Positions 26,111 through 58,974 are shown, counted from the stretch's first letter. The stretch: 64,000 bases of DNA from Candidatus Marisalimonas marina (GCA_038131365.1 JAYPPH010000006.1:120971-184970), one strand, 5' to 3'. A program made the numbers and translations. Notes: generated from the letters alone by a model not told the origin.

Positions 26111-26845
26111 ATGAATATAATTTTTAAGCCAATGTTTTGGCCATCGATATTTTCTTTTTTTGTTTTTGTTATGCTTCTGAGTTTTGGAACTTGGCAAGTA
26201 AAAAGGTTATATTGGAAAGAAGCGTTAATAGAGAGATATTTAGAGCAAAGCCAATCTAATCCTGTCGTTAATCCATCAGATTTAAAAATAAATAATATTA
26301 ATGAATTTAAATCTATCCAGTTCAAAGGTAATTTTCTGCATGAGAATGAAATTTATATAACTGGGAAAACATATGAAGGTAATGCAGGCTTTCATGTTGT
26401 TACACCCTTTAAATTAACAAATGAAAAAATCATTCTTGTTAATAGAGGTTGGGTATCAGAAGGATATAAAGATCCACAAAAAAGAAAATTTAGTCTTTTC
26501 CCTGACCAATTGACTATAAAAGGTATAATAAGATATCCACAAAAAAAAGGTTATTTTGTCCCAGAAAATGATGGCACGAATGGCTTCTGGTTTACTATAA
26601 AACCAGTTGAGATTTTTAAGTTTTTAAATATCAACGATAATGATTTTATTCCTGATTACTATATTGATGCTCTCAGGGTTGGAGAAAAAATGACACTTCC
26701 AATTGGTGTCAGCGGAAAGCCAAAACTAAGAAATCAACATTTATCTTATGCGATAACATGGTATGGTTTGGCATTATCTCTTTTAATTGTTTATTTTTCT
26801 TACCATGCATCACATGGAAGGTTCAAAATTAAAAAGAAAGATTAG
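26111..26845 (+). CDS. surf1: SURF1/Shy1 family protein
   Basis: SFGTWQVKRLYWK, ILVNRGWV, NQHLSYAITWYGL. Confidence 0.92.
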   Translation: MNIIFKPMFWPSIFSFFVFVMLLSFGTWQVKRLYWKEALIERYLEQSQSNPVVNPSDLKINNINEFKSIQFKGNFLHENEIYITGKTYEGNAGFHVVTPFKLTNEKIILVNRGWVSEGYKDPQKRKFSLFPDQLTIKGIIRYPQKKGYFVPENDGTNGFWFTIKPVEIFKFLNINDNDFIPDYYIDALRVGEKMTLPIGVSGKPKLRNQHLSYAITWYGLALSLLIVYFSYHASHGRFKIKKKD

Positions 26846-26846
26846 C

Positions 26847-42738: not shown

Positions 42739-43854
42739 ATGATTAAAACAAAAAAAAATAACAATGAAAAATTCTCTGTTAGGTTATTACACTGGTATGA
42801 TAACAACAAAAGAAATTTACCTTGGAGAGCCTTAACCGGGGAGAATCCTAATCCTTATCATGTATATTTGTCCGAAATAATGTTGCAGCAAACTGTTGTA
42901 AAAACAGTTATTCCCTATTTTTTAAAGTTTGTAAAAAAATGGCCAACTATTACAAGTTTAGCTAACGCCAATTTTGAAGAAATTTCTCAATATTGGGCAG
43001 GATTAGGTTATTATAGACGTGCAAAAAACTTACATGAAACTGCCATGCAGATTGTAAAAAATCATGGTGGTATTATTCCAAATAATAAAAAAACTTTATT
43101 GAGTTTGCCAGGGATTGGGGAATACACATCATCTGCAATAGTTGCTATTGCTTTTGGGAAAAAAGCAAATGTTATAGATGGAAATGTTGAAAGAATTTTT
43201 TCAAGACTATTCAAAATTCAAAAACCTATTAAAGATGCTAAAGATCAAATTATTGACTATTCTAACAAATATTTACCTATTGATAGATATGGAGATTATG
43301 CTCAGGCGCTTATGGATTTAGGGTCTTTAATTTGTATCCCTAAAAATCCACGTTGTTCTGTATGTCCTATAATTGAGTTTTGCCAAGCTGGCTCTGATTT
43401 GTCAGCAAAACAATATCCCAAAAAAAGTTTAAAAATAAAAAAACCTGAAAGATATGGCTTGTTTTATTGTTTATTAAACAAAAAGGGTGAGCTTCTTATC
43501 ACTACTAATAAGAATAAGGGATTATTAGCTAATATGAACGTCTTACCATCAGTTGGGTGGTATGAAGAGGAAAACCGGTTTTCTAAAAAGCCACAATTTA
43601 TAGAGATTAAAGATTCTTTATTTAATCTTGAATGGCAATTTATTGAAAGTAAAATTGTACATGCATTTACGCATTTTAATTTAAATGTCTCAATTGCAAC
43701 AACATTGGTTGAAGATGATATTGTTTTAAAAAAATATTTATTAAAAGGAAATTATAAGTTTGTTAAAGCGAAAAAAATAAAAGATTTAGGCTTACCGAGT
43801 ATTATGAAAAAAATTATAAGACATCTCCAAGATGAAAATATTATTAAAATTTAA
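42739..43854 (+). CDS. mutY: A/G-specific adenine glycosylase
   Basis: LSEIMLQQT, WAGLGYYRRA, LPGIGEYT, DGNVER, CIPKNPRCSVCPI..C Fe-S motif, HAFTHF. Confidence 0.96.
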   Translation: MIKTKKNNNEKFSVRLLHWYDNNKRNLPWRALTGENPNPYHVYLSEIMLQQTVVKTVIPYFLKFVKKWPTITSLANANFEEISQYWAGLGYYRRAKNLHETAMQIVKNHGGIIPNNKKTLLSLPGIGEYTSSAIVAIAFGKKANVIDGNVERIFSRLFKIQKPIKDAKDQIIDYSNKYLPIDRYGDYAQALMDLGSLICIPKNPRCSVCPIIEFCQAGSDLSAKQYPKKSLKIKKPERYGLFYCLLNKKGELLITTNKNKGLLANMNVLPSVGWYEEENRFSKKPQFIEIKDSLFNLEWQFIESKIVHAFTHFNLNVSIATTLVEDDIVLKKYLLKGNYKFVKAKKIKDLGLPSIMKKIIRHLQDENIIKI

Positions 43855-45461
43855 TGCTTAAAATGTCTTATTGAAGTAAAAACCATCGCGATGTTTCTAT
43901 CATTTGCCGCCTCTATTACTTCTTTATCTCTAATTGATCCTCCAGGTTGAATCACGGCAGTTACACCTGCTTCTGCGGCGGCAATCAAACCATCTGCAAA
44001 TGGGAAAAAGGCGTCACTTGCAACTACACTATTTTTAATCATTGAATCTTCTAAATTAGCAATTAATGCGGACTGTTTGGCTTTCTCTATAGCTATTTTA
44101 GTAGAATCTATTCTACTCATTTGACCTGCTCCAATTCCAACAGTTTGAAGATTCTTTGCGTAAATTATTGCATTTGACTTTGTATGTTTTGCAACTTTCC
44201 AAGCAAAAAGTAGATTATTAATTTCATCTTCAGTGGGTCTTTTCTTAGTCACAATTTTTAAACTATTCTTGTCCAAAACATGATTGTCACGTGTTTGAAC
44301 AAGCATGCCTCCTGCTATTGATCTAATTGTTAAACCATCCTCAGAAGGTTTTGGAATTGAAGTAGAAGACAAAATTCTTACATTTGGCTTTTCCTTGAAT
44401 ATTTCCAAGGCATCTTCGTCAACGCTTGGAGCAATTATTACTTCTAAAAATAATGATTTTAATTCACGTGCTAAATTTGCTGTTAAATTTCTATTAATAG
44501 CCACAATGCCGCCAAATGCACTTACTGGGTCAGTTTGAAGTGCATTCTTCCATGCTTCATTAATGTCATCATTCTCTGCAACACCACAAGGATTAGCGTG
44601 TTTTATAATTGCTACTGCTGGTTTTTCAAATTCACAAATCAATTCAAATGCAGCATCAGCATCATTGATATTATTGTATGAGAGCTCTTTACCATGCAAT
44701 TGGATAGATTTAGCAACACCTATTCTGTTATCAGTTGTTTTGTAAAAAGAAGCTTTTTGGTGTGGATTTTCCCCGTATCGCATTTCAAGTGATTTTTCTA
44801 ATTCTAATGTAATTCTTTCAGGTAATTTTGTAGTGTCATTTTCATTTTTGTTAAACCAATTCGAAATTGCTAAATCGTATTCATTTGTTAATTTAAAGGC
44901 TTTACCTGCAAGAAATTTTCTAAATTCATAGGTTGTTGAACAATTATCATCTAATTGTTTTAAAAGTTCACTATAATCTTCTGGATCTGTTATGACAGTT
45001 ACGAATTCGTGATTTTTTGCAGAAGCTCGAAGCATTGCAGGCCCTCCAATATCAATATTTTCAATAATTTTTAAATTATCAGAAGTTTGATTAAGGGTTT
45101 CTTTAAATTTGTATAGATTGATTATGACAAGATCAATTTCTTGAATTTCATGTTTTGCAGTTTCCGAAACATGAGTTGGATTGTTTCGTCTACTTAAAAT
45201 GCCACCATGTATTTTAGGGTGTAATGTTTTTACCCTTCCATCTAAAATTTCAGGGAAACTTGTTATATCTGTAATGTCGGTCACAGGTATAGAATTTTCT
45301 TTTAAAAATTTTGCAGTACCACCAGTAGAAAGTATTTCAATCTTAAACTTGATAAGATTTTTTGCTAATATTTCAATATTACTTTTATCAGTAACAGAAA
45401 TTAGTGCTCTTTTTATTCTAACATTACCTTTAAAAACATTGCTTAAATCTGAAGTGGTCAT
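43851..45461 (-). CDS. purH: Bifunctional AICAR transformylase/IMP cyclohydrolase
   Basis: RALISVTDK, GRVKTLHP, IDIGGP, RYGENPHQ, SDAFFPF, RHFKH. Confidence 0.97.
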   Translation of the reverse strand: MTTSDLSNVFKGNVRIKRALISVTDKSNIEILAKNLIKFKIEILSTGGTAKFLKENSIPVTDITDITSFPEILDGRVKTLHPKIHGGILSRRNNPTHVSETAKHEIQEIDLVIINLYKFKETLNQTSDNLKIIENIDIGGPAMLRASAKNHEFVTVITDPEDYSELLKQLDDNCSTTYEFRKFLAGKAFKLTNEYDLAISNWFNKNENDTTKLPERITLELEKSLEMRYGENPHQKASFYKTTDNRIGVAKSIQLHGKELSYNNINDADAAFELICEFEKPAVAIIKHANPCGVAENDDINEAWKNALQTDPVSAFGGIVAINRNLTANLARELKSLFLEVIIAPSVDEDALEIFKEKPNVRILSSTSIPKPSEDGLTIRSIAGGMLVQTRDNHVLDKNSLKIVTKKRPTEDEINNLLFAWKVAKHTKSNAIIYAKNLQTVGIGAGQMSRIDSTKIAIEKAKQSALIANLEDSMIKNSVVASDAFFPFADGLIAAAEAGVTAVIQPGGSIRDKEVIEAANDRNIAMVFTSIRHFKH

Positions 45462-45531
45462 TTTATAATTTATTCCTAATTAAAATATGATAATGGAATA
45501 GTTTCTTTTTCTATCTTTAGTCAATAAAAAT

Positions 45532-47076
45532 TTAATTTTGAAGTTGGAATCCCCAATCACAGGAAATTGTGTTATGGGCTCTTATTGTTTCGATCCTCAT
45601 AGTAATCATTATTTCTTTACAAGGGACAGGTCCATTAAGACCAAACATAACGGAATCCTGTATATTAATGTTTTGATTACTAGAAGTCATTTTCCATACA
45701 AATCCCTTTGAATGTTTTAATAAAATTGATCCATTCCTTGTCTTTATAAGTTCTATATTTGGAGAAATGTGAAATCGAATATATGCGTTTTTAGGAATTG
45801 TGCCTACATTCCCAATGCTTATAATTTCATCTTTACCTTTAATCTCATTATTGTTTCGAGGTAGATAAATCTGTCTACAATGATTAACTCCATAAATGGA
45901 GCCATAGCCTGAATGCATAACGTTAATTATGCTCCCTTCGTTGGTTTTCTGATATTTCGAATTTAAGATCTCTATTTTTCTTTTTCCGGTTAAATCCACA
46001 TTGTTTCTATCATCAATATTTAGAGTAGAATGAGCAGCTGTTGAGGCTAAGGAGTTATTCATACTCTTGACGTTGGACCCAGATATTTCCCCTAAATTAG
46101 AAATTATTTTTTCTTTTTTGAAGAAAAGTTCGAATGCAAATAAACTTGCCTTTGTATCAACTGAAACTTTTTGTGGAAGTCCAATGTCCATAAATATCAC
46201 TGTATCATTTGAAGATAATCTGCAATACCCAGATTCTTCAGCAACATTAAAGATTCTATTTTTATAACCGATCCTATTTAGAGTTTGTTTAATAAGGTTT
46301 TTTTCTACTAAACTTCCACCGTTAAACCAGGCGAAACTTTCATTTGGCATTTGAAAGCTTCTACAAAATTCACCCATTTTTATAGTTAAATTATGCAAAT
46401 ATTCTGCATCAATATTTTTTAAAATCGCAATAATTGACCTTATTTCAACTAGATGTCTTAGGAGTATTAATTGTTTTGCAGGGCTTCGTGATTTGTGACC
46501 ACCATCAGGATCAATTAAAGTATCAACGGCCTCGTATACTAAGTCTATCATTTTATGAATATTCTTAATATCTTTATACAATATTGATTTAGCTATAAAA
46601 ATACCTTTGATAATAATAATTTTATTTAATGGGCTGTGAGTTTCTTCAAGTTTAAGTTCTAGAAACTTTGCTTGTATCGCTATTGAATTTAAAACTTTTT
46701 TTTGAAATTTTAATTCGCCGCTCTCTACAAACCAAGAATAATTAAAGCACCAACAACTTATTCTTTCTGCCATTGTGCCTGAATTAAATGCTTCAGAACG
46801 GAGATTTATGTCTTGATCAATCCATTCATCAACTAATGAACGGGCAATTGACCTGGCCTTAATGCTGCCATCTGATTTCAAGTCTCTTAAAAACTTAAAC
46901 TTATTGAAATCATGTATTTGTCTGGGATTGATATTGCCACTTATAATTTTTTGGCCTTTAATTCCATCTCCATGCCAATTATCAGTCAGTCTTCTTTCTG
47001 GAGAGTTAACAGGTTCTATTTTTAGTTTTTGTTTAAGAAAATAATTGTTAGTTATTAAATTTAAAAAATCCAACAT
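45532..47076 (-). CDS. Heparinase II/III-like family protein
   Basis: DGGHKSRSP, FAWFNGG, ISNLG, STAAHSTL, HSGY, RFH in the C-terminal domain; upstream of purH as commonly seen in alphaproteobacteria. Confidence 0.7.
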   Translation of the reverse strand: MLDFLNLITNNYFLKQKLKIEPVNSPERRLTDNWHGDGIKGQKIISGNINPRQIHDFNKFKFLRDLKSDGSIKARSIARSLVDEWIDQDINLRSEAFNSGTMAERISCWCFNYSWFVESGELKFQKKVLNSIAIQAKFLELKLEETHSPLNKIIIIKGIFIAKSILYKDIKNIHKMIDLVYEAVDTLIDPDGGHKSRSPAKQLILLRHLVEIRSIIAILKNIDAEYLHNLTIKMGEFCRSFQMPNESFAWFNGGSLVEKNLIKQTLNRIGYKNRIFNVAEESGYCRLSSNDTVIFMDIGLPQKVSVDTKASLFAFELFFKKEKIISNLGEISGSNVKSMNNSLASTAAHSTLNIDDRNNVDLTGKRKIEILNSKYQKTNEGSIINVMHSGYGSIYGVNHCRQIYLPRNNNEIKGKDEIISIGNVGTIPKNAYIRFHISPNIELIKTRNGSILLKHSKGFVWKMTSSNQNINIQDSVMFGLNGPVPCKEIMITMRIETIRAHNTISCDWGFQLQN

Positions 47077-47081
47077 TAAAA

Positions 47082-48443
47082 TTATTTTTCCATTTTTAGT
47101 AAAGCTATAAAAAAACCATCTGAACCATCCATAACATTTTTAAAATTAAAATTAAAATGGTTTGGGAGAATTCTAATAAAACCTTCTTTGGTAATACAAC
47201 AATCTATTTTGGGATATTCTCCATTTAAGAAAGGAATAATTGAGAAGTTTTTATTTTCTTGTAAAAATTTTTCTATTCTTCGTTCTCCCTCAATTTTTTG
47301 AAGAGAGCATGTGACATACATTATTAGTCCATTTTTATTTAATATTTTAGAAGCATTTTCAAGAATTTTGTCTTGAAGAGATGTAAAATCATTTAAATTT
47401 TCTGGAGCAGGTTTAATAAAAATGTCTGCATTTTTCCTTATTGTCCCTGTTGAAGAACAAGGTGCATCTATCAAAATGACATCATAATCAAAATCAGGTT
47501 TATATAGTTCTGCCTCAACATTAATTAGTTTAGGGTTAAAATTTAATCTTTTCATATTAGTTAAAAATTCTTTTGATCTAAACTTACTCTTTTCAATGCT
47601 AATTACGTCTATATCATTATCAAGAAGTTGTGCTGTTTTACCTCCAGGAGCACTACACATATCCAAAACTTTGAGTAAATTATTTTCACATGAGAAATGA
47701 ATTTTTAATTTCGATAATAATAAATTACAGGCAATTTGTGAGGCGGCGTCTTGTATCCACCACACCCCATCAGAATAATAAGGTATAGTTTCAACAGGAT
47801 TTTTAAACATGCATCGAATTACATTAGGAAAAATTTCTGTTCCTTGAACTGCTGATTTCAATTCTTCTAATTGAGTTTTAGTTATTCTATTTGAGACGAC
47901 AATATCAAGTGGAGGGCGAGACATGGCTATATTGACAATTTCTATTACATTTTCTTGTCCATAGGATGTAGTCCAGCTATTTAATAACCATTCAGGTAAG
48001 TTTTTGGTATTGTCAGACGAGGATTTTAAACATTCATCAATATTTAATGCTATCTTTCTTAAAATTGCATTTACTAGTTTAGCTTGTTTTTCTCCAATAA
48101 GATTTTTTGAGTATTTTACTGCCTCGTCTATGACTGCATATGGTGGTATTTTAAGCCAAATAATTTCCACAGTCGCCATAGTTAAAACGCTATTTAAAAG
48201 TCTATTTTTTTTATCAATTCCAAAATTTGAGTATTGATTATAAATATTTTCAGCATGTTTGTGACGCCGCATTGCAGTATTGAGAAGTAAATATAAAAAG
48301 GATTTATCTCTAGTCTCTAGTTTTTTAAAATCAAATGAGGTATTTAAAATTTTATCTAGAGCTCGATTTTTATAAAAAAGAAGGATCCAAATGTTGATCG
48401 CAACTAATCTAGGATTTTTTTTATAAACTTTTAATGGTTTCAA
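47082..48443 (-). CDS. RsmB/NOP family rRNA m5C methyltransferase with NusB-like N-domain
   Basis: IQDAAS, LDMCSAPGGKT, IDAPCSSTGT, YVTCSL, DGFF. Confidence 0.9.
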   Translation of the reverse strand: MKPLKVYKKNPRLVAINIWILLFYKNRALDKILNTSFDFKKLETRDKSFLYLLLNTAMRRHKHAENIYNQYSNFGIDKKNRLLNSVLTMATVEIIWLKIPPYAVIDEAVKYSKNLIGEKQAKLVNAILRKIALNIDECLKSSSDNTKNLPEWLLNSWTTSYGQENVIEIVNIAMSRPPLDIVVSNRITKTQLEELKSAVQGTEIFPNVIRCMFKNPVETIPYYSDGVWWIQDAASQIACNLLLSKLKIHFSCENNLLKVLDMCSAPGGKTAQLLDNDIDVISIEKSKFRSKEFLTNMKRLNFNPKLINVEAELYKPDFDYDVILIDAPCSSTGTIRKNADIFIKPAPENLNDFTSLQDKILENASKILNKNGLIMYVTCSLQKIEGERRIEKFLQENKNFSIIPFLNGEYPKIDCCITKEGFIRILPNHFNFNFKNVMDGSDGFFIALLKMEK

Positions 48444-48522
48444 AATAGTTCCGTTTTCTGTATTTTGTTATTAAACATGTTATAAGGTTTGATAAAGTCT
48501 AGCTATTGGAAAGTAAATTATA

Positions 48523-48687
48523 ATGGAAAAAACTATACCAAAATCTTCTAAGCTTGTAGATGAAAATGACAACTCTATGAAGCCAACAGATAATAAATCT
48601 ATGCCCAAAGAGACAGGTGGCCCTAAAGGTCTAGAACCAACAAGATATGGTGATTGGGAAAAATCAGGTAGATGTTCTGATTTTTAA
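48523..48687 (+). CDS. DUF1674 / SDHAF4 (Sdh8)-like small protein, not in ORF track
   Basis: Hand translation MEKTIPKSSKLVDENDNSMKPTDNKSMPKETGGPKGLEPTRYGDWEKSGRCSDF*; GGPKGLEPTRYGDWE..GRC.DF is the family signature. Confidence 0.92.
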   Translation: MEKTIPKSSKLVDENDNSMKPTDNKSMPKETGGPKGLEPTRYGDWEKSGRCSDF

Positions 48688-48713
48688 TTAGTTTCAGCTT
48701 GAAGTTTAAGATT

Positions 48714-49061
48714 ATGGATGAATTAAAATCAGAAATAATAATTAATGCTGGAATTAGAGCGGCGGAGAGAAAATTTGCAAGTGCTTATGTGACAAAGAAA
48801 GGTGATGTAGATGCAGGCGCAATTTTTGTAAAAATCAATACTCTTGATGGCAAAGCTAAACTTTTTGTAAGAAGTTCTTTGTATGATTTTGAAGAAGATA
48901 AACACAAGTTTAGTTTTGAAGATTTATATCCATCCCAAATTATGTCAGTCGATGATATCGATAAGAGAATCTTCAAAGAAATTAATATAGATATGGACTG
49001 CTGGGTTATTGAGATTGAAGATAAAAAAGGATATAATCCTTTCGAAAATTTAAATTGTTAG
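48714..49061 (+). CDS. DUF1491 family protein (likely start MDELK at 48714)
   Basis: LKSE...A.IR, KKGD.DAGAIFVK, D.DCWVIEIED. Confidence 0.82.
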   Translation: MDELKSEIIINAGIRAAERKFASAYVTKKGDVDAGAIFVKINTLDGKAKLFVRSSLYDFEEDKHKFSFEDLYPSQIMSVDDIDKRIFKEINIDMDCWVIEIEDKKGYNPFENLNC

Positions 49062-50066
49062 TTTCTCTATTAATTCGTTCCTTTTATATAAATTTAAATA
49101 ATCAGCTTTCAATTTTAATATTGCATTAATGTGTTTTAGGGTAGGTATCTCAATTTCTAGTTTATTACCTATTTCTATGATAGCACTCATGATGGGATCT
49201 ATTTCTAACGGTCTTCTCATTTCTACATCTTGTCTAGTTGAAGGTTTGTGACCTTTAATTGAAGCTGCGCCATTAATCCTGTTCTCAATAGAGACATTAA
49301 AGTTAACTCCAATAGCTTCCCCAACTTTTTGACACTCCTCCATCATTTTTTTAATTAGTTTCCTTGTACTTGGATCATTGCCAATAATGTCTAAGCTTGC
49401 TCCTGTTAAAGCGCTGATAGGATTAAAAGTACAGTTACCCCAAAGTTTAATCCAAATTTCATCTCTCAAATTTTTCTTTTGTGGAGCTTTAAGTCCACCC
49501 TTGATAAAAAGATCAGATAATATTTTTAATCTCTCTGAACTCTCCCCATTTGGTTCTCCGAGGCTAAACCTATTTCCTTCAATATGTTTTATAACACCCG
49601 GACTTTCAATTTCACATGCAGGGTAAACAACACAACCAAGAGCTCTTTTAGGGTTTATGGTTTTCCAAATAATTCCACCAGGATCAACAGAGTCTACATG
49701 AGAATTTTCCAAAATCGTTTGTGAACCACATTTATAGAAATACCACCATGGTAAACCATTAACTGCTGATAAAACGGTAGTGTTTGAGTGTAAAAGTGGT
49801 TTTAAGTTTTCGACAATTGGACTTATTGCATGAGCTTTTACAGCTATGATTACATAGTCTTGCTCTCCTAATTCAAAAGTATTATCTGATACTTTCAAAT
49901 TAAATTTTTCTTTACCTTTATCTGAAATTAGAGCTAATCCATTTTTTTGAATAGCTTCTTTATGTGGCCCTCTTGCTACTAATGATACTTCTGCACCTGC
50001 CTTAGCAAGGCTACACCCTATATATCCACCAATAGCCCCAGCGCCAAATATACAAATTTTAGTCAT
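49050..50066 (-). CDS. Ketopantoate-reductase family protein, PanE2/oxalyl-CoA reductase-like
   Basis: ICIFGAGAIGG, VNGLPWWYF, IWIKLWGN..FNPISAL, STRQD....RPLEID; directly downstream of an oxalate-CoA ligase-like gene. Confidence 0.8.
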   Translation of the reverse strand: MTKICIFGAGAIGGYIGCSLAKAGAEVSLVARGPHKEAIQKNGLALISDKGKEKFNLKVSDNTFELGEQDYVIIAVKAHAISPIVENLKPLLHSNTTVLSAVNGLPWWYFYKCGSQTILENSHVDSVDPGGIIWKTINPKRALGCVVYPACEIESPGVIKHIEGNRFSLGEPNGESSERLKILSDLFIKGGLKAPQKKNLRDEIWIKLWGNCTFNPISALTGASLDIIGNDPSTRKLIKKMMEECQKVGEAIGVNFNVSIENRINGAASIKGHKPSTRQDVEMRRPLEIDPIMSAIIEIGNKLEIEIPTLKHINAILKLKADYLNLYKRNELIEKLTI

Positions 50067-50075
50067 TTTGGTGTC

Positions 50076-51578
50076 CTATTCTAAGCCAAGCTTTTTGGAA
50101 AGGCCTATCCTTTGCATTTTACCAGTAGCACCCTTAGGAATTTCATTTAAGAAACATATGTGTTTAGGTATCTTAAAATCAGCCAAATGCATACGTGCAT
50201 AATTTTTTATTTCTGTATCAGTGCATTGAGCACCTGCTTTTAATACTATGGCAACGCCAATGGTTTCTCCAAGCATTTTGTCTTTAACGCCAAAAGTAAC
50301 AACTTGTTCAATAGATTCATGTTCCATTAAAACATTATCAATTTCTAGAGGAGATATTTTTTCTCCTCCTCTATTAATTATTTCTTTTAGTCTACCTGAT
50401 ATTTTCAAATAGCCATCACTATCAAAAAAACCTTGGTCACCAGTTCTAAACCATCCATTAATAAAAGATGATTTGTTTGCCTCCTCATTATTTTCATAAC
50501 CTTTAGTTACGTTATCTCCTTTAATGCAAACCTCGCCTTCAACCCCATTGGGTTGTATTTTGCCACTTGCATCCATTATACAAACTTCTGGACCAGCAGG
50601 TTTGCCAACAAAACCGGCTTTTTGTTGTTCAGGTGGTAAAGGATTAGATGTCATTTGATGGGTTGCTTCAGTCATGCCATAAGCTTCAATCACTGTAGTT
50701 TTAAAAACGTCTTTTAATTCTTCAAAAACCGCAGGTGGCAATGAAGCAGAAGATGACCTGATAAACCTAAGTGATAGACTTTCTGCCAGTGAAGTGTTTT
50801 TTTGAGCCCTTAATAGAATACCTTGGTGCATAGTAGGTACACCTGAATACCAAGTGATTTTTTCTTTTTTTGCATTTTCTAAAAATTTTAAAGCGTTAAA
50901 ACCGCTACTAGCATAAACAGAAGCCCCAGCAAAAATAGATGAACATAAAATAGCAATTAATCCATGAATATGAAAAAGAGGCATAACATTGTAGCAATGA
51001 TCTTCAGATGTTAATTTTAGAGATTTTGAAATATTAAAAGCAGAGGAGAAAATATTTTTATTAGTTAGTGGAACAACCTTTGGTCTTGATGTTGTTCCAG
51101 ATGTATGTAGTACTAAAGCCTCACCTTCTTCTTCTGAAAGTTCAAAACTTGAAACGGAATCATATAGATTAAAAATTCCTTTTGGTTCACCTAGAACCTG
51201 CTTAATTTCACAAATTTCAATATTTAATTTCTTAGCAGCTTCGACAACTGTATTTGTACTTCCTTTTTCAACTATTACTATTTTTGGTTTTAAATCTTCA
51301 AGATAAAATTCATATTCGCTAAGTTTATATGATGGGTTTAAGGGAGCAGCTGACATATAACTTGAAATAGCAAGGAAAGCTGTCGCCATTTCTGGTCCAT
51401 TAGGTAGAACTATTACTGCTCTATCATTATTGCTAATACCATTGGCAGCTAATTGCCCTGATATGTCATAAATATGTTTTTTAAGTGCTTCAAATGTTAT
51501 TTTTTCATTATTATCTGAGGTAATAGCAATGTGATTGTCTTGATTTTCATTGATTAGATTTCTAATAGTTTTAGTCAT
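50076..51578 (-). CDS. Acyl-CoA synthetase, oxalate-CoA ligase (AAE3/Pcs60/Oxs-like)
   Basis: LHTSGTTSRPK, MPLFHIHGL, LRFIRSSSASL, EAYGMTEATHQMTSNPL, WFRTGDQG, ELINRGGEKISP-like segment. Confidence 0.82.
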   Translation of the reverse strand: MTKTIRNLINENQDNHIAITSDNNEKITFEALKKHIYDISGQLAANGISNNDRAVIVLPNGPEMATAFLAISSYMSAAPLNPSYKLSEYEFYLEDLKPKIVIVEKGSTNTVVEAAKKLNIEICEIKQVLGEPKGIFNLYDSVSSFELSEEEGEALVLHTSGTTSRPKVVPLTNKNIFSSAFNISKSLKLTSEDHCYNVMPLFHIHGLIAILCSSIFAGASVYASSGFNALKFLENAKKEKITWYSGVPTMHQGILLRAQKNTSLAESLSLRFIRSSSASLPPAVFEELKDVFKTTVIEAYGMTEATHQMTSNPLPPEQQKAGFVGKPAGPEVCIMDASGKIQPNGVEGEVCIKGDNVTKGYENNEEANKSSFINGWFRTGDQGFFDSDGYLKISGRLKEIINRGGEKISPLEIDNVLMEHESIEQVVTFGVKDKMLGETIGVAIVLKAGAQCTDTEIKNYARMHLADFKIPKHICFLNEIPKGATGKMQRIGLSKKLGLE

Positions 51579-51706
51579 TTTAGATCTCCAATTATTTTTA
51601 TCAATTTAACAATTTAAATTTTTAAAGTGCAATCTAAATTTCTCTTGTGTTTATTTCATTTGTTGATATTAACGTGTTCTTCATTATCTATTTTCAACTA
51701 ACTTGA

Positions 51707-52549
51707 ATGAGCTTTATTTTGATAAATGATATTTTATTTCAAGATTTATTTATTTACTTTATTGGCTTATTAATAACAGGGGTTATAGGTGGACTTATAG
51801 CAGGGTTATTTGGAGTTGGTGGAGGAATTGTAATTGTTCCAATTTTATTTTGGATTTTTACGTCTTTGAATTTTCCAAATGAGATTCTAATGCATATGGC
51901 AATTGGATCGTCATTAGCCACAATTATACCTACATCAATTTCATCGGCTAGAGCGCATTATAAAAAAGGCTCAATTGACATAGAAATCATAAAAAAATGG
52001 TGTCCTGGAATATTTTTAGGTGCAATTATTGGAGGTCTTTCAGGTAAATACTTTAGTGTAAATGAATTGAAGTATCTTTTTGCGATTATTGCTTTTTTAG
52101 TAGCTTTAAATATGTTCTTAAAAGAACCTTTGAAGATTGCAAAAAATTTACCAATATCAAGATTAATAAATATTTCTATTTCTACCGTTATTGGTTTTGT
52201 CTCTTCTCTAATGGGTGTGGGAGCTGGTACTTTAGGTGTTCCAACATTAGTTGCTTTGTCAGTCCCTATACATAAATCAATAGGAACAGCCGCAGCCTTA
52301 GGATTATTCATTGCGGTACCTGCGACACTTGGATTAGCTTTTTCTGGCTTTAACGTTCCCAACAGACCGCCTATGAGTATAGGTTATGTAAATTTAATAG
52401 CTTTTTTTATTATGTTTCCTTTAACAGTTTTTTTTGCTCCAATTGGAGTCAAAATTGCACATCGAATTAATCAAAGGTTATTGAAAATAATATTTGGTAT
52501 TTTTCTAATTATTACATCATTCAAAATGTTGTTTACTATTTTGCTTTGA
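51707..52549 (+). CDS. TauE/SafE (TSUP) family membrane transporter
   Basis: AGLFGVGGGIVIVP, AIGSSLA, SSLMGVGAG, AP.GVKIAH; about 8 hydrophobic helices. Confidence 0.88.
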   Translation: MSFILINDILFQDLFIYFIGLLITGVIGGLIAGLFGVGGGIVIVPILFWIFTSLNFPNEILMHMAIGSSLATIIPTSISSARAHYKKGSIDIEIIKKWCPGIFLGAIIGGLSGKYFSVNELKYLFAIIAFLVALNMFLKEPLKIAKNLPISRLINISISTVIGFVSSLMGVGAGTLGVPTLVALSVPIHKSIGTAAALGLFIAVPATLGLAFSGFNVPNRPPMSIGYVNLIAFFIMFPLTVFFAPIGVKIAHRINQRLLKIIFGIFLIITSFKMLFTILL

Positions 52550-54040
52550 TAAAAATTGTCTTGCTGAGGGAGAAAATTGCTCATTTTGGCTATTATGTTC
52601 TATTTTTTTTGCCAAATTTTTACCAAGTTCTACACCCCACTGATCAAAACTATTTATATTCCATATAAAGCCTGATGCTATTGTAATATTTTCATAAAGA
52701 GCGATTAATCTTCCTATAGAATTAGGCGTAATTTTATCCCAACTGATAACAGTTGATGGTCTGCCGCCTGGAAAGTGTTTGTTTTTATTATTTTTATCCT
52801 CAGAGCCAATAGCTAGAGATTCAGCTTGAGCTATTGCATTTATCACAAGCGATTCATGATTTTTTTTTGCTTCTTGATGTGTAATCTCATTTGATGGGTT
52901 GCGGGGTAATAAAATATCTATTGGTATTATTTCTAACCCTTGATGCAGAAATTGAAAAAAACTATGTTGAGCGTTTGTTCCACATTCCCCCCAGATTAAA
53001 GGGCTTGCAGGCATTTCTAAATCTTTATTATTAATATCCACACTTTTGCCGTTACTTTCCATTTCTAGTTGTTGAGCCCAAGAAGGAAGAGTTTTTAACC
53101 TGTTACTATAAGGTACAATACAATGACTATTTCTATTAAGAAAATTACGGTTCCATATTCTTAGGAGTGCTAAAATTATTGGTATATTTCTTTCAATATC
53201 CTCATTAAAAAAATGATCATCTATTTCATTCGCACCATTTAAAAATTCTTTAAAATTATATTCACCAACACTAAAAATTATAGGTAATCCTACCGAAGAC
53301 CATAGCGAATATCTTCCTCCAATATTCTCTGAAAATGGAAAAATGTTTGCTTCTTTAAATCCCCACTCTATAGCTTTTGAAACAGAAGCAGTAACTGCAA
53401 TCATACAATCATTAATTAATATATTTGAATCTAAAAGCCATTTCTTTGCTAACTTTGCGTTAGCCATGGTTTCTTGTGTACTAAAGCTTTTGGAGGTAAT
53501 TATAAATAAAGTTTTATTTGGATTACATTTTTTTAAAATATCAAAAATATTACTTGGGTCTATGTTAGACACATAAAAAATTTCAGGACCTGTATGAAAA
53601 TCTTTAAGTGCCTCATTGATCATTAAAGGACCTAAGTCTGACCCCCCGATACCAATATTTACAAGATATTCAAACTTTTTCTGATTAAAACTTTTATTAA
53701 TGAAACTAGTTATTTTCTCCCATTCATTGGTATCTAATCTATTTTTTTTTCTTAGTTTGAAATGGTCAACTGACCTGTTTTCAGAAAAATTAATTTTTTC
53801 TCCCTTAGATAATTGTTTAATTTTTTCTAAAATATTAGATTGTTTTGCTAATGCTAATAGATCTTTTTTAATGTCATAATTTATAGGTTGTCTTGTGAAA
53901 TCTACCAAAAGGTCGCCAAAGCATAATTGAAAGTCTCTAGTCCTATTTTCTTCATAAATAAATTTGTTAAGATTATTAAAATTCTGATTTTTTACTTTTT
54001 CTCTAAGAATTTTTGTAATTGGATTGTCCGCTAATTGCAT
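52517..54040 (-). CDS. pgi: Glucose-6-phosphate isomerase
   Basis: NIGIGGSDLGP, SKSFSTQET, GGRYSLWS, QQLEMESNGK, QHSFFQ, FDQWGVELGK. Confidence 0.96.
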   Translation of the reverse strand: MQLADNPITKILREKVKNQNFNNLNKFIYEENRTRDFQLCFGDLLVDFTRQPINYDIKKDLLALAKQSNILEKIKQLSKGEKINFSENRSVDHFKLRKKNRLDTNEWEKITSFINKSFNQKKFEYLVNIGIGGSDLGPLMINEALKDFHTGPEIFYVSNIDPSNIFDILKKCNPNKTLFIITSKSFSTQETMANAKLAKKWLLDSNILINDCMIAVTASVSKAIEWGFKEANIFPFSENIGGRYSLWSSVGLPIIFSVGEYNFKEFLNGANEIDDHFFNEDIERNIPIILALLRIWNRNFLNRNSHCIVPYSNRLKTLPSWAQQLEMESNGKSVDINNKDLEMPASPLIWGECGTNAQHSFFQFLHQGLEIIPIDILLPRNPSNEITHQEAKKNHESLVINAIAQAESLAIGSEDKNNKNKHFPGGRPSTVISWDKITPNSIGRLIALYENITIASGFIWNINSFDQWGVELGKNLAKKIEHNSQNEQFSPSARQFLSKQNSKQHFE

Positions 54041-54123
54041 TTGTTTATAGATTTTCTTTCTTTAATTTGACATTAAAGTCCAAGTTACTTAAGGATCTTA
54101 ATTATAATTAATTGTGTATCATA

Positions 54124-54603
54124 ATGTTTACTAAATTCAGATTTAATTTTATTTATACTATAATTCTAATAACCTTCACTTCAACAAGTTTTGGTGAAAC
54201 TCTTAATTTTAAGAACTTAGTTATTAAAGATTTTTGGATTAAGCCTAGTATCGGAAATCATAAAATAACATCAGGTTATTTAATTATTCAGAATAATAGT
54301 AATTTCGATGAACGTTTGATTTCAGTAACATCAAACTTCTCAAAAAAGACTGAGTTACATCAAATGGATGTAAAAAATGATATAATGATAATGAAAAAAT
54401 TAGTTAAAGGACTGATTATTAAGGCAAAATCTGAAACTGTACTTAAACCAGGTGGTTATCATTTAATGTTTCTAAATTTAAATAATCCAGTAAAAATAAC
54501 AAATAGTTATAAGGTAAATTTATTTTTTGAGAATTCAGGTTCATTTGTAGTCAATATGCCAGTTTTGGATAAAAAATTAAAAAATAATGGTCATAAACAT
54601 TAA
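54124..54603 (+). CDS. Periplasmic copper chaperone PCu(A)C
   Basis: Signal peptide; ELH...M...LKPGGYHLM = H-X10-M-X21-HXM-type motif; C-terminal HKH. Confidence 0.88.
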   Translation: MFTKFRFNFIYTIILITFTSTSFGETLNFKNLVIKDFWIKPSIGNHKITSGYLIIQNNSNFDERLISVTSNFSKKTELHQMDVKNDIMIMKKLVKGLIIKAKSETVLKPGGYHLMFLNLNNPVKITNSYKVNLFFENSGSFVVNMPVLDKKLKNNGHKH

Positions 54604-54716
54604 TATTATTAAATAAATAATTTTTTAAAAAAGATAATTTCATCAAAAATATTTACTAAAAATCTAAAAAAAATAAAAATTTTTCTTTTTATTATCATAT
54701 TAACATTGATTAGAAG

Positions 54717-54758
54717 AAAATTTTCCTTTTAAAAGAATTTTTTTTAAAGGAGAATTTT
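54717..54758 (+). promoter_or_regulatory. Possible anti-Shine-Dalgarno hairpin in metY leader
   Basis: AAAAUUUUCCUUU (54717-54729) can pair with AAAGGAGAAUUUU (54746-54758): 13 bp, one G-U, ending at the ATG. Confidence 0.35.
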
Positions 54759-56057
54759 ATGACTAATTCAAAGCATCCAGAAACTATTAGTTTACATGCA
54801 GGCTGGAGAGCTGATGAAACTACGGGATCAGTCGCGGTCCCTATTCACCAGACTACAAGCTATCAATTCAAAAATACAGATCAAGCAGCAAACTTATTTT
54901 CATTAAGCGAATTGGGTAATATTTACACAAGGATAATGAATCCTACAAATGATATATTAGAGAAAAGAATTTCTGCATTAGAAGGCGGTGTTGCAGCCTT
55001 AGCTGTTTCTTCAGGGCAAACAGCAACAGCATTTGCTATTCAAAATCTTGCTAAGGCCGGTGATAATATTGTAAGTTCAACTGATCTATATGGTGGTACA
55101 TGGAACCTATTTTCAAATACTTTAAAGGATATGGGAATAGAGGTAAGGTTTGTTGATCCTTCAAATCCCAAGGCATTTGAAGAAGCCACAGATGATAGGA
55201 CTCGTGCTTATTATGCTGAAACTTTACCAAATCCAAAATTATCAGTTTTTCCTATTTCTGAAGTTAGTGCTATTGGAAAAAAGTATGGTATCCCTCTGAT
55301 TGTTGATAATACCGCTGCTCCAGTTATCTGTCAGCCAATAAAACATGGGGCTGCAATCGTTGTTTATTCTCTGACTAAATATATAGGTGGGCATGGAAAT
55401 TCTATTGGAGGATTAATTGTAGATAGTGGTAATTTTGACTGGGAATCTGCAGGAAAAGAGAGGCAACCAGCTTTAAATACTCCAGATCCATCTTATGGAG
55501 GAGCTGTTTGGGTTGATGCAGTTAAACCTTTAGGACCGATAGCTTATATTATTAAGGCAAGAGTTACGTTATTACGTGATTTAGGAGCAGCTTTGAGTCC
55601 TTTTAACGCATTTCTGATATTACAAGGATTGGAAACACTATCTTTAAGGATGAAAGCTCATTGTGAAAATGCATCTAAAGTTGCAAATTTTCTTGATAAC
55701 CATAATTTAATCGAGAAGGTTATTTATCCTGAATTACAAATTGGAAACTCTAAACTTTCAGCCGACAAACATTTAACTGGTGGATATGGAGGTATGTTAG
55801 GCTTTGAGTTGAAAGGTGGAGCAAGTGCTGGGAAAAAATTTATTGATGCATTAGAATTATTCTATCATGTTGCCAATATAGGGGACTCTAGAAGTCTAGC
55901 CATTCATCCAGCTACAACAACACATAGTCAATTGTCTGCTGAAGAACAGCTAAAGACAGGAGTTTCTGAATCCTACATTAGATTGTCCGTAGGGATTGAG
56001 CATATAGAAGATATTCTTAATGACTTAAAAAACGCGTTAGATAAATCTCAAGCATAA
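54759..56057 (+). CDS. metY: O-acetylhomoserine aminocarboxypropyltransferase (sulfhydrylase)
   Basis: PIHQTTSY, IYTRIMNPT, SSGQ, SLTKYIGGHG (PLP Lys), HVANIGDSRSLAIHPATTTH, IRLSVGIE. Confidence 0.9.
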   Translation: MTNSKHPETISLHAGWRADETTGSVAVPIHQTTSYQFKNTDQAANLFSLSELGNIYTRIMNPTNDILEKRISALEGGVAALAVSSGQTATAFAIQNLAKAGDNIVSSTDLYGGTWNLFSNTLKDMGIEVRFVDPSNPKAFEEATDDRTRAYYAETLPNPKLSVFPISEVSAIGKKYGIPLIVDNTAAPVICQPIKHGAAIVVYSLTKYIGGHGNSIGGLIVDSGNFDWESAGKERQPALNTPDPSYGGAVWVDAVKPLGPIAYIIKARVTLLRDLGAALSPFNAFLILQGLETLSLRMKAHCENASKVANFLDNHNLIEKVIYPELQIGNSKLSADKHLTGGYGGMLGFELKGGASAGKKFIDALELFYHVANIGDSRSLAIHPATTTHSQLSAEEQLKTGVSESYIRLSVGIEHIEDILNDLKNALDKSQA

Positions 56058-56081
56058 TTAATTTGATTAAAATATAATTTT

Positions 56082-56111
56082 AAAGAGCTAAGAAATTTCT
56101 TAGCTCTTTTT
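56082..56111 (+). terminator. Intrinsic terminator after metY
   Basis: Perfect 28-bp palindrome AAAGAGCTAAGAAATTTCTTAGCTCTTT followed by T residues. Confidence 0.8.
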
Positions 56112-56188
56112 ATTTAAGTTGGTAAATTTTATTTATTGTAGTAGTTATTCAACCTTTTAATATAAATTTTCTTTTAGAGGGTTGTTAA

Positions 56189-57193
56189 TTGCTTTTGAAT
56201 GAAAGATTTTCTGTGGCTCCAATGATGGAGTGGACAGACCTTCATTGTAGGTATTTTTTAAGACTCATTTCTAAGTATACAGTTCTTTATACGGAAATGA
56301 TTTCAGCTGATTCAGTAATTTTTGGACCACGTCAAAAATTATTAAATTTTAATGCTGAAGAATTACCATGCATTCTTCAACTTGGTGGAAGTAATCCTCA
56401 AAGATTAGCTCAAGCTGCTAGGTTTGGGCAAGATTATGGTTACTCACAAATTAACCTTAATATTGGCTGCCCTTCTAATAGAGTTCAAAATGGTTCTTTT
56501 GGAGCGTGTTTGATGAAGGATCCTAAATTGGTTGCCGATTGTGTCAAATCTATCCAAGATGATTGTCAAATACCTGTAACTATAAAATGTAGAATAGGTG
56601 TTGATCAAATGGATGAGGAAAAAGGTTTAGATGATTTTGTTGATGAGGTATCAGCCGAAAACGTTGATGTTTTTATAATACATGCACGTATAGCCATTCT
56701 AAATGGATTAACTCCAAAACAAAATAGAGAAATTCCTCCTTTAAAATATGAAAGAGTGGCTGCTTTAAAAAAAAGAAGACCAGATTTAAAAATAATTATT
56801 AATGGAGGAATTACCTCAATAACACAAGGCTTAGATCTTCAAAAAAGATATGGCTTAGACGGGTTTATGATTGGAAGAGAGGCTTATAAGAATCCATATA
56901 TTTTGAGTTCAGTTGATAAAGATGTTTTTAATAAAGAAATAAAAACTAAATCAAGATATCAAATAGCTATGCAAATGGCTGACTATATAGATCATTATAT
57001 GAAATATAAAGATGGAAACGTTCATTCTATAATAAGGCATATTTTGGGTTTGTATAACTCCTTACCAGGTGCTAAATACTGGAGACAGGAATTGAGTGAA
57101 AACGCAAGATTTGCAAAGAATGGTGATATTTTAAGATTTGCTACAGAAAATATTGAAAAGTTAATAAATAAAGAAAATTCAGTATTAGTTTAG
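56189..57193 (+). CDS. dusA: tRNA-dihydrouridine synthase A (TTG start)
   Basis: FSVAPMMEWTD, LYTEM, QLGGS, INLNIGCPSNRVQ, VTIKCRIG, HAR, INGGI, MIGREAY. Confidence 0.95.
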   Translation: MLLNERFSVAPMMEWTDLHCRYFLRLISKYTVLYTEMISADSVIFGPRQKLLNFNAEELPCILQLGGSNPQRLAQAARFGQDYGYSQINLNIGCPSNRVQNGSFGACLMKDPKLVADCVKSIQDDCQIPVTIKCRIGVDQMDEEKGLDDFVDEVSAENVDVFIIHARIAILNGLTPKQNREIPPLKYERVAALKKRRPDLKIIINGGITSITQGLDLQKRYGLDGFMIGREAYKNPYILSSVDKDVFNKEIKTKSRYQIAMQMADYIDHYMKYKDGNVHSIIRHILGLYNSLPGAKYWRQELSENARFAKNGDILRFATENIEKLINKENSVLV

Positions 57194-57203
57194 GAGTTTT
57201 GTA

Positions 57204-57761
57204 TTGGAAGAAGTAAATAAAAAAGAGGGGTATAGATCTATTCTAGAAATGGGGCCTCTATTGTTGTTTTTTGGAGTAAATTACTTTTATGGAATTATGG
57301 CAGGTACTGCAGTTCTGGTTATTAGTACCCTCCTTTCTCTAGGGCTTTCTTGGTATTGGTTTAAGAATATTCCTATGATGGCTGCTGCTGGGTGTGTAGC
57401 AGTTGTTCTTTTTGGAGGTTTAACAATATTTTTTGATGATGAGTTTTTTATAAAAATCAAACCAACTATTGTTTCAATAATTATAGCAGGTGTCTTAGCA
57501 TCTGGAAAAATTTTAGGAAGAAATCCTCTTGCAGCTATTATGAAGTCAGCTGTAAACTTAGACAATGAAGGATGGAATAAATTAACATGGCTCTGGGTAG
57601 GCATGTTCATAATTATGGCGGTTGCGAACGAAATAGCGTGGCGAAATTTAACAACCGACCAATGGGTTTCTTTTAAAGCTTTTGGTATCCCAATATTATC
57701 TTTAGGATTTGGGTTGTTATCTTTGCCAATAATGCAAAAACACCAAATAAAAAAGGACTAA
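57204..57761 (+). CDS. yciB: Intracellular septation protein A / YciB (TTG start)
   Basis: LEMGPL..FF, FIKIKPTI, GWNKLT..W, ANEIAWR, WVSFKAFG. Confidence 0.9.
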   Translation: MEEVNKKEGYRSILEMGPLLLFFGVNYFYGIMAGTAVLVISTLLSLGLSWYWFKNIPMMAAAGCVAVVLFGGLTIFFDDEFFIKIKPTIVSIIIAGVLASGKILGRNPLAAIMKSAVNLDNEGWNKLTWLWVGMFIIMAVANEIAWRNLTTDQWVSFKAFGIPILSLGFGLLSLPIMQKHQIKKD

Positions 57762-57762
57762 T

Positions 57763-58974
57763 TTACTTTTCTAATGTTTCAAGCTTCTTTATTAGTTCCA
57801 AAGATATTTTTGAATTTGGAGGTAGAGTAGCTATTAATTTATTCCAATATAGCTTTGCTGTGTTATTCTCGCCATTATTAAAAGCTTTAAGACCCTTAAA
57901 AAATAAAGCGTCAACGTTGTTTGGTTCTTTAATTAAAATGTCATCAATTAGTTTGTCTGTTTCTAGCGTAAATTTAGGTTTATCTTGAGGTGGTAACAAT
58001 TCTTTTAAAAGAGTTTGTTTCAAAATAATTGAGGGTTTAATCTCAATAGCTGTTCTAAGAGCTAACAATGCTTTATCATTCTCTTGTAGATATTTGTAAG
58101 AATTAAATAATCTTATCCAACCTTCAAAATCATCTTTTTCTTTGGTAAGCCTGCTTGCTAGTTGTTCAACCATTCCATAGATTCTTATTTTTTGTTCTTT
58201 TTCGGATAGATTTAAAATGTTTGTAGCAACGTCATTGTTAATATTTTTATTACTTTTAAGTTGAATATTTATCTCTTTTTGACTTATGCCTATATTTTTT
58301 GCTGCTGATTTTATATTTATTTCTAGATTTTTTTTCCAAGTATCATTTTTAATAGTGCTATTGTATAATTTTATCCATATTTTCAAAGCTTCATCTTCAT
58401 TTCCAATTTGAGATTGTCTTAGGCCGTTTAAAAAATTTGCTCCGGGATCTAATGGATTTTCGATTAGGACCTCATCAACAAGTTTTTTAGCTTTAGTTGT
58501 TACCTGGCCATTAGCTTTTCTTACAATAGCTTGTGCAAGCAATGATTTAATTTTTGGTGATGAATTGATTGAATTTAGTTTTGTCAAAGAAGCGATCTCA
58601 GCTTCAATTTTATTAACTTTGGAGGCAACCTCAGCTAATTTTAAAAGTATTTGAATATTATTAGGTTCTTTTTTTAACGCTATATTTAATTCATTAAATT
58701 TTTGTAAGTTTTTGTCAAAATTTTTATTTTTTTGTGCCTCAGTTTCTTTGAGTTTATCTCTCTGTGAATATAATTCTTTTATATTTATAAATGGGTTACC
58801 GACATAGTTGTATATTAGGGAACTAAGTGTGAATAAAAATAATACAATAAATATAAAAGTAATATTTTGTATTTTATAAATTGATTTTCTTTCATTAGAA
58901 AGTTTGATGATATCGTTTTTAAAAACATATAAGATACTAATAAAGCTTATGATTAAAATTATAAGAAATATCAT
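57763..58974 (-). CDS. ccmI: c-type cytochrome biogenesis protein CcmI/CycH (TPR)
   Basis: N-terminal TM pair, Y..VGNP, TPR repeats, MVEQLASRL....DD.EGW..L..SY; last gene of the ccm operon. Confidence 0.8.
   Translation of the reverse strand: MIFLIILIISFISILYVFKNDIIKLSNERKSIYKIQNITFIFIVLFLFTLSSLIYNYVGNPFINIKELYSQRDKLKETEAQKNKNFDKNLQKFNELNIALKKEPNNIQILLKLAEVASKVNKIEAEIASLTKLNSINSSPKIKSLLAQAIVRKANGQVTTKAKKLVDEVLIENPLDPGANFLNGLRQSQIGNEDEALKIWIKLYNSTIKNDTWKKNLEINIKSAAKNIGISQKEINIQLKSNKNINNDVATNILNLSEKEQKIRIYGMVEQLASRLTKEKDDFEGWIRLFNSYKYLQENDKALLALRTAIEIKPSIILKQTLLKELLPPQDKPKFTLETDKLIDDILIKEPNNVDALFFKGLKAFNNGENNTAKLYWNKLIATLPPNSKISLELIKKLETLEK

Follow-up and report, generated by a model that had tools for sequence, protein, structure and literature searches.

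A two-gene marine operon predicted to convert oxalate reductively to glyoxylate

In Methylorubrum extorquens AM1, Schneider and colleagues reportedly described in 2012 a route in which an oxalyl-CoA synthetase (Oxs) is followed by an oxalyl-CoA reductase (PanE2), and the same organism is said also to run an oxidative branch through Oxc and Frc for energy. Here we describe two adjacent genes, one for a CoA ligase and one for a reductase, in a 64,000-nt stretch of DNA deposited as Candidatus Marisalimonas marina (GCA_038131365.1, JAYPPH010000006.1:120971-184970), which we call the window throughout. As judged from their sequences and from their company in other genomes, the two genes are likely to be an operon for the ATP-dependent, reductive conversion of oxalate to glyoxylate. 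In the first step, a ligase of the AAE3/Pcs60 type would adenylate oxalate and transfer it to CoA, giving oxalyl-CoA, as homology and conservation of the substrate pocket suggest. In the second, a reductase of the PanE2 type would reduce the thioester with NAD(P)H and release glyoxylate and free CoA, a step indicated by 42% identity to PanE2, a common subfamily and the gene context. The module is an alternative to the classical entry into oxalate metabolism through OxlT and Frc (with or without Oxc). Its parts are as follows.

50076..51578, minus strand: AAE3/Pcs60-type oxalate--CoA ligase (AMP-forming, EC 6.2.1.8, predicted), 500 aa (from Pfam, PDB-sequence scores and pocket residues)
49050..50066, minus strand: PanE2-subfamily enzyme of the ketopantoate-reductase fold, predicted oxalyl-CoA reductase (glyoxylate dehydrogenase, CoA-acylating, EC 1.2.1.17), 338 aa (from Pfam, NCBIfam and identity to PanE2)
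50067..50075, minus strand: intergenic spacer of 9 nt (read from the sequence), with a Shine-Dalgarno-like AGGA at 50077-50074

The locus resembles several described systems and differs from each of them. With the M. extorquens pair it would share both reactions, and the two reductases fall in the same NCBIfam subfamily; the window genes, however, form a tight operon without oxc, frc or oxlT within 64 kb. A reading of the window made earlier from its sequence alone (the sequence-only reading) had noted neither oxc nor frc, and tblastn searches of the 64 kb with frc, oxlT and thiamine diphosphate (ThDP)-enzyme queries likewise returned nothing, which also sets the locus apart from classical OxlT/Frc/Oxc oxalotrophy. 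The ligase is 47-50% identical to plant AAE3 and yeast Pcs60/Fat2 (PDB 5IE0-5IE3, 6QJZ, 8AFF) and keeps their Ser289 and His319 pocket. In plants, however, the product passes to an oxalyl-CoA decarboxylase, yielding formate and CO2, whereas the window ligase is coupled to a reductase, and the window pocket has I, S and G where the plant pocket has V, C and A, all conservative replacements. ApbA2 of Cupriavidus necator and the reductases linked to OxlT, Frc and Oxc in Bradyrhizobium and Burkholderiaceae belong to the same subfamily as the window reductase (~50% identical to it), but CoA transfer by Frc and import by OxlT take the place there of the ATP-dependent ligase of the window type. Canonical PanE of E. 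coli (EC 1.1.1.169) shares the two-domain fold and the catalytic Lys, Glu, Ser and Asn with the window reductase; it differs in overall sequence (25% identity), in having Asn241 where the window enzyme has His, in lacking the PWWYF-containing insertion, and in that the window type is linked to oxalate genes, not to pantothenate genes. Finally, members of these two enzyme families, Pcs60/FAT2 and M. extorquens PanE2, have been put together in yeast as a synthetic 'oxalate pathway' that leads oxalate through glyoxylate to glycine (PMC12686821, PMC10127448). That pathway is engineered from the genes of two organisms, whereas the window operon would be a natural version. The route has its precedent in M. 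extorquens, and the ligase family in plants and yeast. What appears to be unreported in the searchable literature, in which we found no paper joining oxalate with SAR11 or SAR116, is that ligase and reductase form a tight operon and that this operon is widespread among abundant lineages of the ocean.

The ligase has the two-domain architecture of the ANL superfamily (Pfam AMP-binding, E = 4.9e-66, and AMP-binding_C, E = 2e-14). When it was compared with all PDB sequences, the three best matches were AtAAE3 (5ie0, 410 bits), the Lathyrus oxalyl-CoA synthetase (6qjz, 404 bits) and yeast Pcs60 (8aff, 382 bits), with MenE (190 bits) and malonyl-CoA synthetase (~176 bits) as the next families. Identity was 47% to AtAAE3 over 453 aa and 50% to ScPcs60 over 339 aa, versus ~25% to E. 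coli MenE, FadD and CaiC. The oxalate pocket of AtAAE3 consists of V215-H216, C288-S289, A313-M314, H319 and K500, and by the same account S289 and H319 are not conserved outside the oxalyl-CoA synthetases (PMC8905533). Window residues H203, I204, H205, S276, S277, G301, M302, H307 and K487 correspond to AtAAE3 H214, V215, H216, C288, S289, A313, M314, H319 and K500, and both oxalate-specificity residues are kept (S277 for Ser289 and H307 for His319). This pocket did not vary across all 43 reductase-linked ligases that we collected, and its H/S/H combination was missing from the E. coli control ligases MenE, FadD and CaiC. In the tree, plant AAE3 grouped with these bacterial ligases, apart from FadD and MenE, with support of 100/99. 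The sequence-only reading had proposed that phylogeny should separate an AAE3-type enzyme from other ligases, and both the grouping with AAE3/Pcs60 and the retained pocket came out on the AAE3 side. By homology, then, the ligase is predicted to activate oxalate (oxalate + ATP + CoA -> oxalyl-CoA + AMP + PPi). No NCBIfam model captures it (the best, that of the uncharacterised FadD7 family, gave 386 bits where the cut-off is 650), and it is for this reason that its public name is 'acyl--CoA ligase'.

For the reductase (Pfam ApbA and ApbA_C) the comparison was with two reference proteins, M. extorquens PanE2 (WP_015822665), taken as the translation of a yeast codon-optimised open reading frame (ORF) in the supplement of PMC12686821, and E. 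coli PanE, taken as b0425 from K-12 (PDB 1KS9). The window reductase and PanE2 scored almost alike against NCBIfam NF005089 (438.5 and 435.1 bits, cut-off 223), had the same best PDB match, the Ralstonia protein 3ghy, and aligned with each other over 324 aa (267 bits, E = 2e-92). Both carry an NG(I/L)PWWYF insertion and a GHK motif, which were unvarying in an alignment of five subfamily members and absent from E. coli PanE. The score of the window reductase against E. coli PanE, in contrast, was 48 bits. All NCBIfam PanE equivalog models stayed below their cut-offs for the window protein, the best being NF005091 at 149 versus 252 bits, while the generic TIGR00745 apbA_panE subfamily model was passed (190 bits, cut-off 141). 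Residues N103, K207, S276 and E288 align with E. coli N98, K176, S244 and E256, and His273 aligns with Asn241; we take Asn98, Lys176, Asn241, Ser244 and Glu256 of E. coli PanE to be its ketopantoate-binding residues. In a maximum-likelihood tree, PanE2 nested within the subfamily and E. coli PanE was a very distant outgroup, while the window reductase lay in a marine clade in which every member is ligase-linked. The branch leading to PanE2 is long, which leaves the exact placement of this protein uncertain.

These results place the reductase with PanE2 and not with canonical PanE, the alternative against which the sequence-only reading had wanted it checked, and the enzyme is predicted on sequence grounds to convert oxalyl-CoA and NAD(P)H to glyoxylate and CoA. 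Independent genetics backs a role of the subfamily in oxalate metabolism, since C. necator ApbA2, which is 51% identical to PanE2 and lies near frc-oxc, impairs growth on oxalate when deleted. PanE2 itself has been used in vitro as an oxalyl-CoA reductase, and a Pcs60-type ligase together with PanE2 makes a working synthetic oxalate-to-glyoxylate route in yeast (PMC12686821). The suspicion that such a module would be hidden under a pantothenate annotation was also well founded: the public name of the reductase is '2-dehydropantoate 2-reductase', beside the generic name of the ligase given above.

The two genes had been described as co-directional and 9 nt apart, and their ORFs agree with that description. 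The ligase stop codon (TAG, 50078-50076) is overlapped by the AGGA motif, 9 nt of spacer follow, and the reductase begins with ATG at 50066; from this overlap of ribosome-binding motif and stop codon we conclude that ligase and reductase are one operon. No terminator-like site was found between them. All motifs quoted in the sequence-only reading were recovered, LHTSGTTSRPK, LRFIRSSSASL and EAYGMTEATHQMTSNPL in the ligase and NGLPWWYF in the reductase. Several metatranscriptomes of salt-marsh, seawater and aquatic origin contain the locus, and contigs from three runs cross the ligase-reductase junction (X3, 49224-50223; X1, 49698-50189; X8, 50036-50186), which fits co-transcription of the two genes in situ, although contigs of this kind do not tell the strand and may contain DNA.

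Gene context ties the reductase to oxalate beyond this one locus. A scan of one genome per species returned >590 reductase relatives, and we examined the surroundings of the best 80, that is, those most similar to the query and not a random sample of the subfamily. An AAE3-type ligase, 47-80% identical to that of the window, lay immediately upstream on the same strand in 44 of the 80, and none of these 44 loci had oxlT or frc within 10 kb. In another 27 there was no ligase, but oxlT and/or frc lay nearby (oxlT TIGR04259, 624 bits; frc TIGR03253, 736 bits); the hosts were Bradyrhizobium, Caballeronia, Burkholderia, Pandoraea, Afipia, Rhodopseudomonas and Azospirillum. The remaining nine, some of them on short contigs, had neither. 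The reductase is thus linked to oxalate genes in 71/80 loci, and in these 80 the subfamily is tied to oxalate in two mutually exclusive ways, by ligase activation or by OxlT import with Frc CoA transfer. Where ORFs of pair-bearing loci were inspected, the distance between ligase and reductase ranged from a 4-nt overlap to ~25 nt. The ligase and reductase trees are congruent, so the pair has been inherited or transferred as a unit.

Several other genes recur near the reductase. In the soil-type loci, we considered whether oxc was present as well and rejected it: the sole ThDP enzyme seen (L037) fits PRK05858 (445 bits, cut-off 587) over oxc (248 bits, cut-off 557). In the Caballeronia loci (L037:14486-16339 and L051:13023-14318), the ThDP enzyme is closer to PRK05858, below its cut-off, and to 2-hydroxyacyl-CoA lyase than to oxc, and the neighbourhood also holds a homologue of the succinate/malate--CoA ligase beta-subunit, which hints at further C2/C4-CoA chemistry. 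A gene of the fumarylacetoacetate-hydrolase family lies directly 3' of the PanE2-type reductase in many soil-type loci (for instance L066:11014-11802, and many Bradyrhizobium and Afipia).

A gamma-glutamyltransferase (GGT)-family gene (TIGR00066, 374 bits) adjoins the pair at L023:2035-3618 and 14 other Pelagibacteraceae loci, at L072:11029-12618 and at L055:11571-13280. Its arrangement differs, being upstream, directly downstream or convergent, in three unrelated lineages, which suggests a functional link to the pair, for example as an amide-hydrolysing step that feeds oxalate. In SAR11 we had considered an oxamate amidohydrolase of the HpxW type and set it aside, as the gene product scored 87 bits against 5hft, which we take to be that enzyme, versus 252 bits against a cephalosporin-acylase-like protein. 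Genes read as TctC/TctB/TctA, a tripartite tricarboxylate transporter, flank the pair at L013:4867-7984 (a SAR116 single-cell genome) and L053:11018-14108 (Roseobacter sp. CCS2) and are also present in several frc/oxlT-type loci; TctABC is a candidate uptake system for oxalate or a precursor. The Tct naming is our reading of the sequences, a TctC representative having had no NCBIfam match.

On the other side of the pair in the window, the ligase shares its upstream region with a divergent permease gene.

51579..51706, no strand: 128-nt intergenic region 5' of the ligase, common to the divergent TauE gene, with a GGAGA ribosome-binding site at 51589-51585
51707..52549, plus strand: TauE/SafE (TSUP) family anion permease, divergent from the operon (Pfam TauE, E = 9e-51)

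Only in the population of the window itself (L001-L006) and at L007 and L010 does TauE adjoin the pair; it is absent at L008, L009, L011, L012 and all other pair-bearing loci. It was ruled out as the transporter of the module, since it is not conserved with the pair, but it is possible that TauE carries oxalate without being a fixed part of the module. The immediate neighbours of the pair are DUF1491 on one side and TauE and pgi on the other. The identical reductase protein occurs on 23 metagenome contigs, and the six independent contigs examined have the same gene order as far as their length goes (Dus - MetY-like - LpqE - PGI - TauE - ligase - reductase - DUF1491 - DUF1674 - RsmB). Rfam gave no match at the gathering threshold in the whole window and only chance-level matches in 48400-52000, with no riboswitch (glycine or other) 5' of the ligase, and a promoter scan gave promoter-like matches no more common than in shuffled sequence.

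The sequence-only reading had implied a SAR11 host, and this part of it did not survive. The closest named relatives of the pair (76-80% identical) are those of SAR116 single-cell genomes, SCGC AAA015-N04, and the cultured Candidatus Levibacter sp. Uisw_134_01. Over ~20 kb of flanking sequence, SAR116/Levibacter loci match the gene order of the window at 50-90% amino-acid identity, with mutY, purH, a heparinase-like gene, rsmB, DUF1491, pgi, LpqE, metY, dus and ccmI in common order, whereas Pelagibacteraceae loci have the ligase and reductase alone in common with the window and differ in their flanks. Levibacter is a low-GC (31.4%) lineage of Puniceispirillales, and the GC content of the window, ~30%, is in line with it. 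From flanking synteny and matching GC we conclude that the host is a low-GC SAR116 bacterium of the Levibacteraceae kind. In the comparison of window positions 42739-58974 with L007-L012, ligase and reductase were 76-80% identical, metY 84-90%, and the other flanking housekeeping genes 46-78% (mutY, heparinase-like, rsmB, pgi, ccmI and others). Since it is better conserved than most flanking housekeeping genes, the pair appears to be under comparatively strong constraint. One of these loci, L007 (CAJIZD010000007.1), is titled a Planktomarina (Roseobacter) metagenome-assembled genome, yet it is syntenic with Levibacter sp. Uisw_134_01 (L010) and both genes are nearly identical between them; it is probably a mis-binned or mislabelled contig.

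The module is also found in SAR11 single-cell genomes, SAR324, roseobacters and others, and its cultured carriers are Levibacter sp. Uisw_134_01, Roseobacter sp. CCS2, Yoonia maricola and Ruegeria spp. Fifteen single-cell genomes labelled Pelagibacteraceae carry the pair, with a ligase 69% and a reductase 62% identical to those of the window. In both trees, the Pelagibacteraceae proteins nest inside SAR116-labelled lineages (L014-L033 versus L007-L020). This nesting suggests either that the two genes have passed laterally, as a unit, between SAR116 and SAR11 or that low-GC amino-acid composition has produced an artefact.

We next weigh what else the pair might do. The same chemistry could serve to remove oxalate, internal or taken up, as detoxification or salvage with little carbon flux and not as nutrition; we regard this as unlikely, though credible. 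AAE3-type enzymes have been described mainly as enzymes of oxalate catabolism and tolerance in plants and yeast, the pair has no dedicated oxalate transporter linked to it in the lineage of the window, neither a regulatory RNA nor a regulator adjoins it, and every C2 unit converted consumes ATP (to AMP) and NAD(P)H. Against a purely protective role, uptake systems (TctABC, TRAP) and the GGT-family hydrolase adjoin the pair in several lineages, the same reductase is found in soil relatives beside the genuine oxalotrophy genes oxlT and frc, and the pair is conserved better than most of its housekeeping neighbours even though the genomes are streamlined. We think it quite improbable that the reductase is, or is also, the ketopantoate reductase of pantothenate synthesis, as annotated, with a functionally unrelated ligase beside it. 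The fold, the four aligned catalytic residues, the passed TIGR00745 model and the scoring of SAR116 genera as vitamin B5 prototrophs would all be explained in this way. What would not be explained are the low identity to E. coli PanE and the failure of every PanE equivalog model, the replacement of the substrate-binding Asn241 by an unvarying His-Lys motif, the PWWYF insertion common to the reductase and PanE2, and the linkage to oxalate genes at 71 loci, with immediate neighbours that are not pantothenate genes in the pair-bearing loci inspected; moreover, PanE paralogues inactive on ketopantoate are documented. Counts from Pelagibacter point the same way. A 2026 preprint read the presence of K00077 (36/135 complete Pelagibacter genomes) as pantothenate prototrophy versus auxotrophy, and its supplement gives K22133, the oxalate-CoA ligase, in 40/135; these similar counts, compared as totals and not as per-genome co-occurrence, fit a linked pair.

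That the pair acts on another small acid, such as malonate (through malonyl-CoA to malonate semialdehyde) or an oxalate-like 2-oxo or amide acid, seems to us very unlikely. ANL ligases do change substrate readily, the pocket departs from that of the plant enzyme at three positions, the best NCBIfam match is the uncharacterised FadD7 family, far below its cut-off, and the GGT-family hydrolase linked in some lineages hints at an amide precursor. However, both oxalate-specific residues are kept, malonyl-CoA synthetase structures score less than half as many bits as the oxalate enzymes, the oxalyl-CoA synthetase of grass pea loses about four orders of magnitude in efficiency on the longer dicarboxylates malonate and succinate, and relatives of the reductase sit with oxlT and frc. 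There is very little to recommend the last alternative, that the reductase acts, like P. aeruginosa KPR2, on a broad range of alpha-keto acids (reducing, for example, glyoxylate to glycolate) and not on a thioester. PaKPR2 is indeed a PanE paralogue inactive on ketopantoate that reduces glyoxylate, pyruvate and other keto acids, but this distant paralogue (8IWG, labelled 'KPR2/PanE2') matches the window reductase at 52 bits, versus 267 for M. extorquens PanE2, and such an activity would leave the tight coupling to a CoA ligase unexplained.

Conversion of oxalate to glyoxylate thus remains the reading we favour, and several points tell against it. Three of the eight pocket residues differ from AtAAE3 (V215I, C288S and A313G), conservative as these changes are, and the nearest characterised reductase, PanE2, is on a long branch at 42% identity. 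On KEGG calls, SAR116 genomes count as pantothenate prototrophs, and the reductase could also be the cell's only ketopantoate reductase. The 80 context loci are those nearest the query, the junction-spanning metatranscriptome contigs have the limits given above, and no oxalate transporter was identified for the pair, TauE not being conserved with it.

If glyoxylate is the product, it would pass into central metabolism via malate synthase, by transamination to glycine, or by reduction to glycolate. For SAR11, glycolate oxidase, malate synthase G and usually isocitrate lyase are reported, as is a genus-wide dependency on glycine/serine. For SAR116, synthesis of all 20 amino acids is reported, and a glyoxylate shunt in some genera only. 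The argument that glyoxylate is needed as a glycine precursor, which the sequence-only reading had taken from SAR11, is documented for that group, but because SAR116 is reported to synthesise all amino acids it does not transfer to this host as it stands. The idea that the pair replaces a missing isocitrate lyase in SAR11, raised by the 36 genomes with K00077 and the 36 without isocitrate lyase, was rejected, as K00077-positive species mostly have the lyase (12/13 and 4/4).

The rest of the annotated stretch holds genes of the carotenoid/retinal pathway, cytochrome oxidase and other housekeeping genes. The threonine synthase gene seems to be split (window 26787-28264), with an ORF at 26787-27878 and no in-frame continuation before the next gene at 28257. 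An intact threonine synthase of 483 aa is found on a related 525-kb metagenome contig (L088:14879-16330), and the split fits either an assembly indel or a strain-specific frameshift.

Oxalate is a common photochemical and algal product in surface water. The sole marine oxalotrophy survey that we found in the searchable literature used oxc, oxdC, oxlT and frc as its markers, and with these alone it would miss the ligase-reductase route. More broadly, it may be, although we hold this only tentatively and at somewhat less than even confidence, that the 'panE' used for pantothenate prototrophy calls in SAR11 and SAR116 is an oxalyl-CoA reductase that forms, with the AAE3-type ligase, a mobile two-gene module, carried by low-GC SAR116 and by about a quarter to a third of the complete genomes of Pelagibacter, turning oxalate into glyoxylate in the ocean's most abundant heterotrophs. 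If the Pelagibacter K00077 gene is of the PanE2 type, the trait would describe oxalate use and not vitamin B5. The module would then supply glycine in glycine-dependent SAR11 and would be a sink for oxalate that has gone unrecognised and that surveys built on oxc and frc do not see. On the reading that we favour, oxalate joins the likely substrates of very abundant, streamlined marine bacteria, among them low-GC SAR116, part of SAR11, SAR324 and roseobacters.

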